A stretch of 32,000 nt of DNA from Breznakia sp. PF5-3 (GTDB taxonomy: Bacteria; Bacillota_I; Bacilli_A; Erysipelotrichales; Erysipelotrichaceae): contig NZ_JAQFIQ010000003.1 in assembly GCF_029504745.1 (NCBI RefSeq), positions 58,404-90,403 of the forward strand. Reading direction: 5' to 3'. Shown in pieces: positions 26,704 to 27,347 of the stretch. Numbering within the stretch: position 1 is the first letter of the stretch; every line of letters starts with the position of its first letter. Under the pieces are notes generated by a model. The model saw nothing but the letters and a program-made list of their open reading frames with translations. It made no database searches and had not been told where the DNA came from. Both the position numbers and the translations under genes were made by a program.

Positions 26704-26735
26704 TCAAAAAAAGGTTGTTATTCAGGCAACCTTTT
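26704..26735 (-). terminator. rho-independent terminator of the DarT-like gene
   Basis: aaaaggttg (26709-26717) pairs with caacctttt (26727-26735). The gene's stop codon lies in the 9-nt loop. On the minus strand the stem is followed by TTTTTTT. Confidence 0.65.
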
Positions 26736-27347
26736 GTAATTATTAATTTTCCAATATTCATAATCATTGCGATTTTGAAAATATGTTTGACAGATTTTTA
26801 CCGTTGTTTTACAACTTGTTGGAATTGTACCTTTATAAATAAAGTAATTAGAACGATCTTCAAAATGAACTTCTTTTATATATTCTACAGGTATTTCATC
26901 ATAACATAACACCTTAGACTGTACAGTAGTAGGATATTTAGAATCTAGCTTTAATTCTTTTCTACTAACTTGGTCATCAACTTCATCAAACAATTGCAAA
27001 AAGGCATTTTCTCCATATGATAATGGACTCCCCTTCATTGGCGAAAAAGCACATTTTTTACTTGCTAAAATACTTGCATCAATCAATAATATAACCCATG
27101 GTAAATTATGTTGACGAAACCGAATTGAGTTAAATTGAACATAATCAGGAAATTCTATAGATAATGCAATAGCATCATGATATTTTCGACTTTTAAAATT
27201 AAAATAACTCTCAATATTTTTCTCCATTAAATCTGTTCGTGGTAATAACCCATAACGGAAAATACTATAAAGATTTTCTGCTTGTGTAAAATGTACCAAA
27301 TATTTAATACCACGATCCTCTAAAATCTGATTCATTAATTCCTCCAT
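26718..27347 (-). CDS. DarT-like DUF4433 ADP-ribosyltransferase-fold protein, orphan (no DarG), catalytic Glu position = Lys
   Basis: N-terminal KYLVHFTQAENLYSIFRYGLLPR matches the DarT YH(I/F)THxxNLxSIxxxGLL signature. FPDYVQF resembles DYVPFYF. TVQSKVLCYDEIPVEYIKEV aligns position-for-position with the DarT KQAEFLVYQAFPWALVEEI segment as I recall it. Start at ATG 27347, 8 nt after AGGAG. The track's 26 extra N-terminal codons lack an SD. Confidence 0.6.
   Translation of the reverse strand: MEELMNQILEDRGIKYLVHFTQAENLYSIFRYGLLPRTDLMEKNIESYFNFKSRKYHDAIALSIEFPDYVQFNSIRFRQHNLPWVILLIDASILASKKCAFSPMKGSPLSYGENAFLQLFDEVDDQVSRKELKLDSKYPTTVQSKVLCYDEIPVEYIKEVHFEDRSNYFIYKGTIPTSCKTTVKICQTYFQNRNDYEYWKINNYKRLPE

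Follow-up and report, generated by a model that had tools for sequence, protein, structure and literature searches.

The window analysed here is a stretch of 32,000 nucleotides from Breznakia sp. PF5-3 (contig NZ_JAQFIQ010000003.1, positions 58,404 to 90,403). On its minus strand lies a darT-like gene, which can be read as an intact open reading frame (ORF) of 209 amino acids from an ATG at 27347 to a stop codon at 26718-26720. A second in-frame ATG at 27335 gives a product of 205 amino acids, and an equivalent start is used in all orthologues. Because the orthologues all begin there, and because GGAGG stands 5 nt upstream, the true product is probably the 205-residue protein. An earlier reading of this DNA, made from the letters alone and called here the sequence-only reading, had described the 209-residue form. 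The frame is indeed intact, but the start is likely to lie at the second ATG. Residues are numbered throughout as in the 209-residue form; Lys145, the residue of chief concern, becomes Lys141 in the shorter one. Sequence and predicted fold place the protein by descent in the DarT superfamily, with DarT1 as its nearest kin, and this lysine stands at the position of the catalytic glutamate.

Membership in the DarT family, which the sequence-only reading had proposed, is borne out by profile, homologue and fold. The Pfam DarT model (PF14487/DUF4433) matches residues 19-178 with 40.7 bits, against a gathering cut-off of 22.5. When all sequences of the Protein Data Bank (PDB) are searched with phmmer, the sole match is DarT1 of E. 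coli C7 (8baq/8bar/8bas; E=1.2e-19, residues 6-177), a protein of similar length and about 31% identity. The DarT2 chains of Thermus and Mycobacterium go undetected in that search (E>10). An AlphaFold2 model built from 68 sequences (predicted, not solved) has a predicted local distance difference test score (pLDDT) of 93.5 and a predicted template modelling score (pTM) of 0.89. Its best Foldseek match is again DarT1 (8baq), with a template modelling (TM) score of 0.82 over 205 columns. DarT2 entries come next, at TM 0.50-0.59 (Thermus DarT2 at 0.55-0.59), and after the DarTs come weak matches to Tpt1/KptA (query-normalised TM 0.30-0.40, E 0.013-0.17). The Thermus DarT chosen as comparator in the sequence-only reading was therefore the wrong one. 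DarT1 of E. coli ADP-ribosylates guanine at N2 in single-stranded DNA (ssDNA), and its antitoxin is NADAR (Schuller et al. 2023, PMC11543638).

With HMMER, 1.84 billion cluster representatives were searched exhaustively, and 1970 homologues came back at E<=1e-3. The gene to which the window protein belongs is far more restricted. A word-index search found seven 90%-identity clusters that are 65-100% identical to the window protein. Scanning one genome per GTDB species located it solely in Breznakia pachnodae (81%), B. blatticola (65%) and Erysipelotrichaceae bacterium MTC7 (65%), with the next match beyond this clade, in Paenibacillus roseus, at 38%. The bit score drops from 318 to 119 outside the clade. 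The gene is thus restricted to Breznakia, a genus of insect-gut Erysipelotrichaceae. The clade set used below holds nine distinct sequences, 65-81% identical, from at least three named species-level genomes and from metagenomes.

A crude neighbour-joining (NJ) tree, which carries no support values, puts the Breznakia clade on a long stem among DarT1s linked to NADAR. Its immediate neighbour there is a UvrD-DarT fusion (L023), a placement that may reflect long-branch attraction. The H19-F20-T21 motif, which contributes to NAD+ (nicotinamide adenine dinucleotide) binding, is invariant in the clade and present in 156-157 of 157 aligned relatives. Neither NCBIfam nor PHROGs has a match to the protein. 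The PADLOC DarT model gives a weak partial match (17.5 bits, residues 15-46, 32 residues), with no partner gene and in a housekeeping neighbourhood.

The sequence-only reading had also claimed a lysine at the position of the essential glutamate, and this too is correct. In the phmmer alignment K145 pairs with residue 153 of the 8baq chain. The index of that chain is the published numbering plus one, and with this offset H17, F18, T19, R35, N48, R52, M71 and N104 all land correctly. Residue 153 is therefore E152, an alanine in the crystal construct; the deposited chain is the E152A mutant (PMC11543638). In an alignment of 157 library proteins, column 145 is covered by 150 proteins from outside the clade, every one of them with Glu; Lys is confined to the clade members (7/7). 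Across 79 loci, tblastn finds Glu in every non-clade genome or metagenome locus covering the column. Lys145 itself occurs in all nine distinct clade sequences.

Such a result could arise from a shifted alignment. In that case D150/E151 or D68 would be the true catalytic residue and the protein would be a normal DarT1. Two observations speak for this: every clade member has D or E at position 150, and N68D is a clade-specific acidic gain near the helix of M71. The sequence-only reading had likewise suggested the DE of CYDEIP as a possible acid. However, the block T-x-[PV]-Q-[AS]-[EK]-V-L is gapless in phmmer, MAFFT and tblastn, and its column is Glu in all covering non-clade proteins and Lys only in the clade, so the alignment is not shifted. 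The homologue alignments give the Breznakia protein neither Glu nor Asp at the position. D150/E151 was rejected as a substitute acid: position 150 is D in 61 and E in 29 of the 157 proteins, many Glu-bearing DarT1s among them, and position 151 is unconserved and varies even within the clade. Position 68 follows a conserved Pro just before the helix 65-74 of the model (205-residue numbering), where Asn and Asp would be interchangeable as helix-capping residues. An artefact of this kind is very improbable. A charge swap between D68 and K145, or a catalytic acid that has moved to a new place, is a separate and conceivable idea. The Q-A-E strand of a functional DarT1 toxin is thus represented here by a strand with Lys145 in place of its glutamate.

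The lysine is old and well kept. Its codon, which the sequence-only reading had noted to be a single transition from GAG, is AAG in the window, and four orthologues use AAA. The hint of a recent lesion does not survive this, since Lys is fixed genus-wide with both of its codons, at a ratio of nonsynonymous to synonymous divergence (dN/dS) of at most 0.1, and is accompanied by further active-site changes. Other pocket residues vary in codon as well: Q71 is CAA or CAG, and R54 is CGA, CGC or CGT. Among the orthologues the proportion of synonymous differences (pS) is 0.68-0.81, which is saturated, dN is 0.10-0.29, and dN/dS is 0.075-0.10 where computable. The gene is under purifying selection.

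These data bear on the view that the gene is a relic in decay, left over from a dead toxin and simply not yet deleted. The catalytic Glu and the antitoxin are both missing, as would be expected of one. But synonymous sites are saturated while dN/dS does not exceed 0.1, all nine distinct sequences are exactly 205 residues long with no frameshift, stop or indel in 205 codons, and the promoter, ribosome-binding site and operator described below are conserved. Recent horizontal copying, which could make a relic look preserved, is contradicted by the 65-81% identity and by synteny. A relic is extremely improbable, and the passive retention of a disarmed toxin, one of the options in the sequence-only reading, is excluded by purifying selection together with the coordinated, fixed changes in the active site.

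These changes can be followed residue by residue in the structure of DarT1. There NAD+ is contacted by H17, F18, T19, S26, R35, N48, R52 and F72 (PMC11543638). All of these contacts are kept in the Breznakia protein, as H19, F20, T21, S28, R37, N50, R54 and F72. A second set of residues is defined by toxicity: alanine at E152, N104, M71, R52 or D54 each abolishes the toxicity of DarT1 (PMC11543638). Of these five only R52 is kept, as R54; the other four are changed or deleted. R54, Q71, K105 and K145 occur in every one of the nine clade sequences.

The departures are concentrated. Among the canonical relatives, conservation reaches 75% or more in about 45 columns. The clade shares about 35 conserved columns with them and departs at six: N68D, M71Q, Y73N, P142V, A144S and E145K. 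All six lie within two active-site motifs, FPN-Y-K-M-F-Y and T-N-P-Q-A-E-V-L. In the first of these the canonical relatives have N in 100%, M in 86% and Y in 80% of cases. At position 142 the DarT1 of E. coli also has V. The net charge of the pocket shifts towards positive through E to K, N to K and the loss of D54, and N68D offsets this in part. Also kept are Q143, which corresponds to Q150 of DarT1 and its contact with a DNA phosphate, R129 and the C-terminal motif. The pocket is the part of the protein that the clade conserves best: 17 of its 20 positions are invariant, and of the other 185 positions 80 are (Fisher p=3e-4, with the list of pocket positions drawn up post hoc). Read against the DarT1 structure, the half of the pocket that binds NAD+ is retained, and the catalytic and guanine-binding half is replaced by different invariant residues.

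The second part of a DarT system is its antitoxin. The sequence-only reading had noted that no macrodomain gene is present, which is correct. Since the protein is of DarT1 type, however, the antitoxin to expect is NADAR (PF22397) and not the macrodomain protein DarG, so the missing macrodomain is not telling in itself. NADAR is absent as well, and the conclusion survives: tblastn with six NADAR queries has no match in the window or in the 10 other clade loci. Pfam scans of all ORFs of at least 90 amino acids find no macrodomain, NADAR or ADP-ribosylglycohydrolase (ARH) in the 32 kb window, and none of the three is recorded for the called genes of the clade's metagenome and assembly loci (flanks of at most 10 kb per side, shorter where the contig is short). 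The clade loci have neither the downstream NADAR gene of a DarTG1 system nor the adjacent DarG of a DarTG2 system.

The nearest relatives with the catalytic Glu are arranged differently. In all of them, at 20 loci or more, a gene for the PF22397 'DarT1-associated NADAR antitoxin' follows directly downstream, at a distance of 4-120 bp; its hosts include Paenibacillus, Siminovitchia, Bacillus, Fervidobacterium, Burkholderia, Halarcobacter and Selenomonadaceae. Where the context of relatives was checked (about 30 of some 60 loci), a Glu-type DarT has an adjacent eraser or is fused to a helicase.

Upstream of the gene, the intergenic DNA of the orthologous loci has a mean column identity of only 46%. 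Two blocks in it are conserved: GTATAAT, which holds the -10 box, and a cre-like palindrome that either abuts this box or sits 18 nt upstream of it. The palindrome, 14 nt long, fits TGWAANCGNTNWCA, the consensus of the Firmicute catabolite-responsive element (cre). Four loci match this consensus exactly, the window and B. pachnodae depart from it at one position each, and one locus has a degenerate copy. Perfect or one-mismatch copies therefore stand at the same upstream place in six of seven orthologous loci, the copies outside the window being L001 9950-9963, L007 5224-5237, L008 3588-3601, L012 7957-7970 and L011 7928-7941. It is the only such site in the window, and in each of the four loci with a perfect match that match is the only one. 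By count alone the site would not stand out, because matches to the cre pattern in the window (2 strand-hits against 2.9 expected) are not significant. The case for an operator comes instead from positional conservation across orthologues, and on this ground the palindrome is a putative CcpA/LacI-family operator. Its position fits repression and suggests carbon-catabolite control of a metabolic or stationary-phase gene. Such a promoter layout would be unlike that of the antitoxin-linked operon of a toxin-antitoxin module.

The darT-like gene stands alone, with its own -10 box and ribosome-binding site. A GGAGG ribosome-binding site occurs at the same place in B. pachnodae, and other orthologues have purine-rich AGAGG or GGGG(A). 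Downstream, a hairpin with a T-run probably acts as a terminator that separates the darT-like gene from nox, which lies only 82 bp beyond the stop codon. The sequence-only reading had spoken of a good terminator; the hairpin and T-run are there, but with only three G-C pairs 'good' is generous. Between 26300 and 28100 Rfam detects neither riboswitch nor leader at E<=1, and in particular no NAD+ riboswitch. The GC content of the gene is 28%, compared with 31% for the window. Coordinates are collected in Table 1.

Table 1. Features of the darT-like gene and its surroundings, in window coordinates.
Feature	Position	Strand	Remarks
DarT1-derived coding sequence	26718..27335	-	205 aa + stop; Pfam, 8baq, AlphaFold2/Foldseek, orthologue starts
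H-F-T NAD+-binding motif, codons H19-F20-T21	27285..27293	-	equivalent to H17/F18/T19 of DarT1; NAD+ contacts from PMC11543638
R54 codon (R52 of DarT1)	27186..27188	-	loop after it 2 residues shorter, D54 gone
Codons 68-73, D-Y-V-Q-F-N	27129..27146	-	remodelled N-Y-K-M-F-Y; N68D, M71Q and Y73N fixed in the clade
K105 codon (N104 of DarT1, guanine-coordinating)	27033..27035	-	followed by a clade-specific 9-residue loop deletion
Codon AAG, Lys145	26913..26915	-	aligned with the catalytic E152 in DarT1 of E. coli; read directly
Ribosome-binding site GGAGG	27341..27345	-	5 nt upstream of ATG 27335; read directly
-10 box TATAAT, preceded by G	27384..27389	-	invariant GTATAAT block in the upstream alignment of all orthologues
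cre-like palindrome TGAAAGCGGTTCCA	27408..27421	-	one mismatch to consensus TGWAANCGNTNWCA; overlaps the -35/spacer region
Hairpin + T-run (probable terminator)	26709..26735	-	11-bp stem, 3 G-C pairs; overlaps the stop codon
Tandem overlapping Rrf2-family genes	24373-25234	+	143 + 160 aa; adjoin cysK
Solitary PTS lactose/cellobiose IIA gene	27598-27921	-	adjoins the FakA-like ORF
ORF with FakA-like middle domain (PF21645)	28054-28305	-	83 aa; apparently a gene fragment

Conditional expression of this sort could also serve a protein that is still toxic. The gene product might be a growth-controlling DNA ADP-ribosyltransferase whose activity is reversed by a NADAR, macrodomain or ARH encoded elsewhere. 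Precedents exist: housekeeping macrodomains can act on ADP-ribosylated DNA, and DarT of M. tuberculosis is reported to have a physiological, growth-coordinating role (PMC12170906). The conserved cre-like operator would fit, and the searches for an eraser were confined to the window and the clade loci. Nevertheless, four of the five residues whose change to alanine abolishes DarT1 toxicity are altered or deleted, and the checked Glu-type relatives have an adjacent eraser or a helicase fusion, which the clade never has at its 11 loci. A toxin of this kind is therefore improbable.

The reading favoured here, with a probability of about 0.5, is that the protein is an exapted, non-toxic descendant of DarT1 that binds NAD+ or ADP-ribose (ADPr) and has no transfer activity, or a residual one. 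Its starting point would have been a DarT1 toxin within a DarT1-NADAR (DarTG1) module. In an ancestor of Breznakia, the ADP-ribosylation of guanine N2 in ssDNA would have been lost through the replacement of Glu by Lys, M71Q, the deletion of D54 and the shortening of the N104 loop with its own change to Lys, and the NADAR antitoxin would have been lost in that ancestor too. The half of the pocket that holds NAD+ (H-F-T, S28, R37, N50, R54 and F72) would have been kept, along with much of the ADP-ribosylating turn-turn (ARTT) and DNA-contact scaffold, including Q143 and R129. What results would be a stand-alone chromosomal protein on its own promoter, probably under catabolite control. Given the retained NAD+ contacts, Q143, R129 and the C-terminal motif, the protein most likely still binds NAD+ or a ligand containing ADP-ribose, and probably nucleic acid. 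Three options had been offered by the sequence-only reading, namely a disarmed toxin, a repurposed DarT-fold protein and an enzyme using a neighbouring acid; the second fits best.

Several points weigh against exaptation as a mainly binding protein. Loss of the glutamate need not end catalysis, as DarT1 E152A still formed ADPr-guanine in crystallo (PMC11543638), and PARP1, a related enzyme of the H-Y-E type, retains mono- and oligo-ADP-ribosylating activity when its Glu is likewise replaced by Lys (E988K; PMC5137445). The residues on the acceptor side, D68, Q71, N73, K105 and K145, are invariant, and such invariance suits a functioning active site better than a mere binding relic. The N104 column varies throughout the family (N 61%, R 11%, K 9%), with K in some Glu-type proteins linked to NADAR. 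Because of this variability K105 is weak evidence. Lastly, an unlinked NADAR, macrodomain or ARH may be encoded elsewhere in the Breznakia genomes, the eraser searches having covered the window and the clade loci.

Some of the same points can be read as signs of a new enzyme. On this account the protein is an active NAD+-dependent transferase, rebuilt around Lys145, Lys105, Arg54 and Asp68, which modifies a different and non-lethal acceptor. Possible acceptors are a different base, a protein, a small molecule, or a phosphate at a terminus or at the 2' position, as with Tpt1/KptA. The product would be harmless, and so no antitoxin would be needed. The retention of mono-ADP-ribosyltransferase activity by PARP1 E988K and the reaction of DarT1 E152A in the crystal count in favour, as do the complete set of NAD+ contacts and the invariance of the substituted acceptor-side residues across orthologues of 65% identity. 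The positive shift in pocket charge would suit an anionic acceptor, as phosphate is for enzymes of Tpt1 type. Enzymes of the ADP-ribosyltransferase (ART) fold that lack the glutamate do exist, among them Tpt1 (R-H-R-R), ParT (R-Y-N) and AcrIF11 (H-H-D) (PMC8120803). Tpt1/KptA are also the next fold matches after the DarTs, though weak ones, and the resemblance to Tpt1 is at the level of the fold only.

Other considerations oppose such an enzyme. In ARTs the catalytic Glu supports an oxocarbenium-like transition state, which a cationic Lys near the nicotinamide ribose should destabilise. M71, the proposed stabiliser of that intermediate, is lost too (PMC11543638). No candidate substrate or partner gene is conserved nearby at the clade loci. 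A neo-functionalised transferase is the main rival, possible but less likely than the favoured reading. Its most specific form is slightly less likely again: a Lys-centred NAD+ transferase with a basic pocket of R54, K105 and K145 plus D68, acting on an anionic or non-guanine acceptor such as a phosphate of nucleic acid (as Tpt1 does), a different base or a metabolite. The modification would be non-toxic and physiological, regulated by catabolites and in need of no dedicated eraser. This chemistry would be new for the DarT fold. If it were true, the protein would be the first natural case of an ADP-ribosyltransferase toxin from a toxin-antitoxin system turned into a housekeeping enzyme by replacement of the catalytic Glu.

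Whichever activity it has, the protein can be set beside four known systems. With DarT1-NADAR of E. coli C7 it shares the fold, the length, the contacts H-F-T, R37, N50, R54 and F72, the strand T-x-x-Q-x-[E/K]-V-L, the C-terminal motif F..R.D...W and its NJ placement among NADAR-linked DarT1s. It differs from DarT1 in having Lys for Glu, Gln for M71, no D54, and a Lys with a 9-residue deletion at the N104 loop. It differs from DarTG1 as a system in that it has no NADAR gene, a syntenic housekeeping site, a cre-like operator and a distribution confined to Breznakia.

With DarT2/DarG of Thermus and M. tuberculosis the likeness is limited to the superfamily, the Pfam model and the Foldseek range given above. 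DarT2 is specific for thymidine and has a macrodomain antitoxin, whereas the Breznakia gene has no macrodomain neighbour and its product has Lys instead of E160. The arrangement that stacks nicotinamide (NAM) also differs between DarT1 and DarT2 (PMC11543638). A third comparison is with PARPs, both PARP1 E988K and the natural H-Y-[I/L/Y/V/T] forms, which have an ARTD-clade fold with the catalytic Glu replaced. The Glu-replaced PARPs include mono-ARTs and the inactive PARP9 and PARP13, and some of them are pure binding pseudo-enzymes. Unlike the Breznakia protein they are eukaryotic, multidomain and directed at proteins, and none derives from a toxin of a toxin-antitoxin system. We know of no earlier description of a natural Lys at the catalytic Glu position.

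Tpt1/KptA, the fourth, likewise have an NAD+-using ART fold that works without a catalytic Glu, and a basic active site that binds a phosphate acceptor is a feature of Tpt1. In contrast to the DarTs, their likeness in fold to the Breznakia protein is weak, neither Pfam nor the PDB gives a sequence match, there is no demonstrable R-H-R-R tetrad, and they are two-lobed with a separate RNA-binding lobe. A literature search found nothing relevant on Lys-variant, orphan or stand-alone DarTs, or on a conserved DarT clade without an antitoxin.

The surroundings of the gene are those of an ordinary chromosome. The window holds efp, ffh, rlmA, thiI, an iscS-like gene, ezrA, rpsD, ssb, M16 peptidases, ftsK and rnj, along with genes for a 2-hydroxyacid dehydrogenase, a CoA-enzyme activase, HAD hydrolases, two Rrf2 regulators, a PASTA protein and an ABC transporter, and also cysK, nox and a phosphotransferase system (PTS) IIA gene. 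The darT-like gene is at a syntenic housekeeping site, outside any mobile or defence setting. The convergent Rrf2 pair adjoins it in all Breznakia loci whose contig extends to that side, whatever rearrangements have occurred elsewhere; synteny is the simpler explanation of this proximity. The upstream neighbour varies among orthologous loci and may be a PTS IIA gene or a gene for a SHOCT protein, a transglutaminase-core protein or secreted proteins.

The other neighbour, nox, encodes an NADH oxidase. It is adjacent in the window and in L007 and L011, is separated from the gene by the Rrf2 pair in L009, and is not seen within the available flanks of the MTC7 and B. blatticola loci. A functional link with nox was rejected, as the adjacency is not conserved across orthologous loci. 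Two further observations concern the upstream side in the window. The PTS IIA gene is solitary, as the window has neither a IIB nor a IIC gene, and next to it stands a short ORF whose only recognised domain is FakA-like.

The searches also turned up other architectures among the Glu-type relatives. One is a cassette, mostly from Bacteroidota, of a UvrD-like helicase (about 500 amino acids), a DarT (about 220) and an overlapping ARH of PF03747 (about 470-510). It occurs at L041 6427-10168, likewise at L043, L045 and L054, and at L004 4490-8069 (a groundwater metagenome). It looks like a DarT system with an ARH eraser instead of a macrodomain or NADAR. This ARH- and helicase-linked group of Bacteroidota is more distant from the Breznakia clade than are the NADAR-linked relatives.

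Fusions to helicases are found as well. L030 7941-10859 (972 amino acids) has an N-terminal DarT followed by a full RecQ (DEAD/Helicase_C/RQC/HRDC) by Pfam, and L036 7971-10976 (1001 amino acids) has the same ORF layout. In L023 5382-8573 (1063 amino acids) a UvrD helicase bears a C-terminal DarT. Elsewhere DarT forms the C-terminus of long WD40 beta-propeller proteins (P0029, P0033, P0041, P0075) or of a pentapeptide-repeat protein (P0046), with Glu in all; many such proteins are among the closest canonical relatives in the library of 1.84 billion proteins. P0017 is a weak CSD-DarT case with Glu at the catalytic position.

Two further arrangements involve NADAR. At L073 4086-5229, L075 7106-8306 and L078 8001-9166, from metagenome-assembled genomes of Acholeplasmatales, Clostridia and 'Mollicutes', only an N-terminal DarT fragment (37-88 residues matched) is present, upstream of a NADAR match that spans some 200 codons. 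Here the toxin may have decayed while its antitoxin survived as an orphan, the reverse of the Breznakia case. At L017 6846-9531, from a metagenome-assembled genome of Fervidobacterium, two tandem DarT1 paralogues (224 and 232 amino acids) precede a single NADAR gene.

DarT toxins attract study as effectors of phage defence, as growth regulators and as antimicrobial targets, and their catalytic Glu is treated as invariant. The immediate impact of an exception is limited by its narrow host range of one genus. Still, Breznakia presents a natural lineage in which Glu has become Lys, the active site has changed in a coordinated way and the antitoxin is gone, yet the gene is held under strong purifying selection at a fixed site. 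It is a test case for the domestication of a lethal toxin from a toxin-antitoxin system. The natural series E152K, M71Q, ΔD54, N68D, Y73N and loop deletion offers a means to dissect NAD+ binding, catalysis and choice of base in the DarT1 pocket. Should the protein prove active, the ADP-ribosylation of nucleic acids or metabolites would gain a new reaction. If it is inactive, it would be a bacterial pseudo-ADP-ribosyltransferase, which may sense NAD+ or ADP-ribose.

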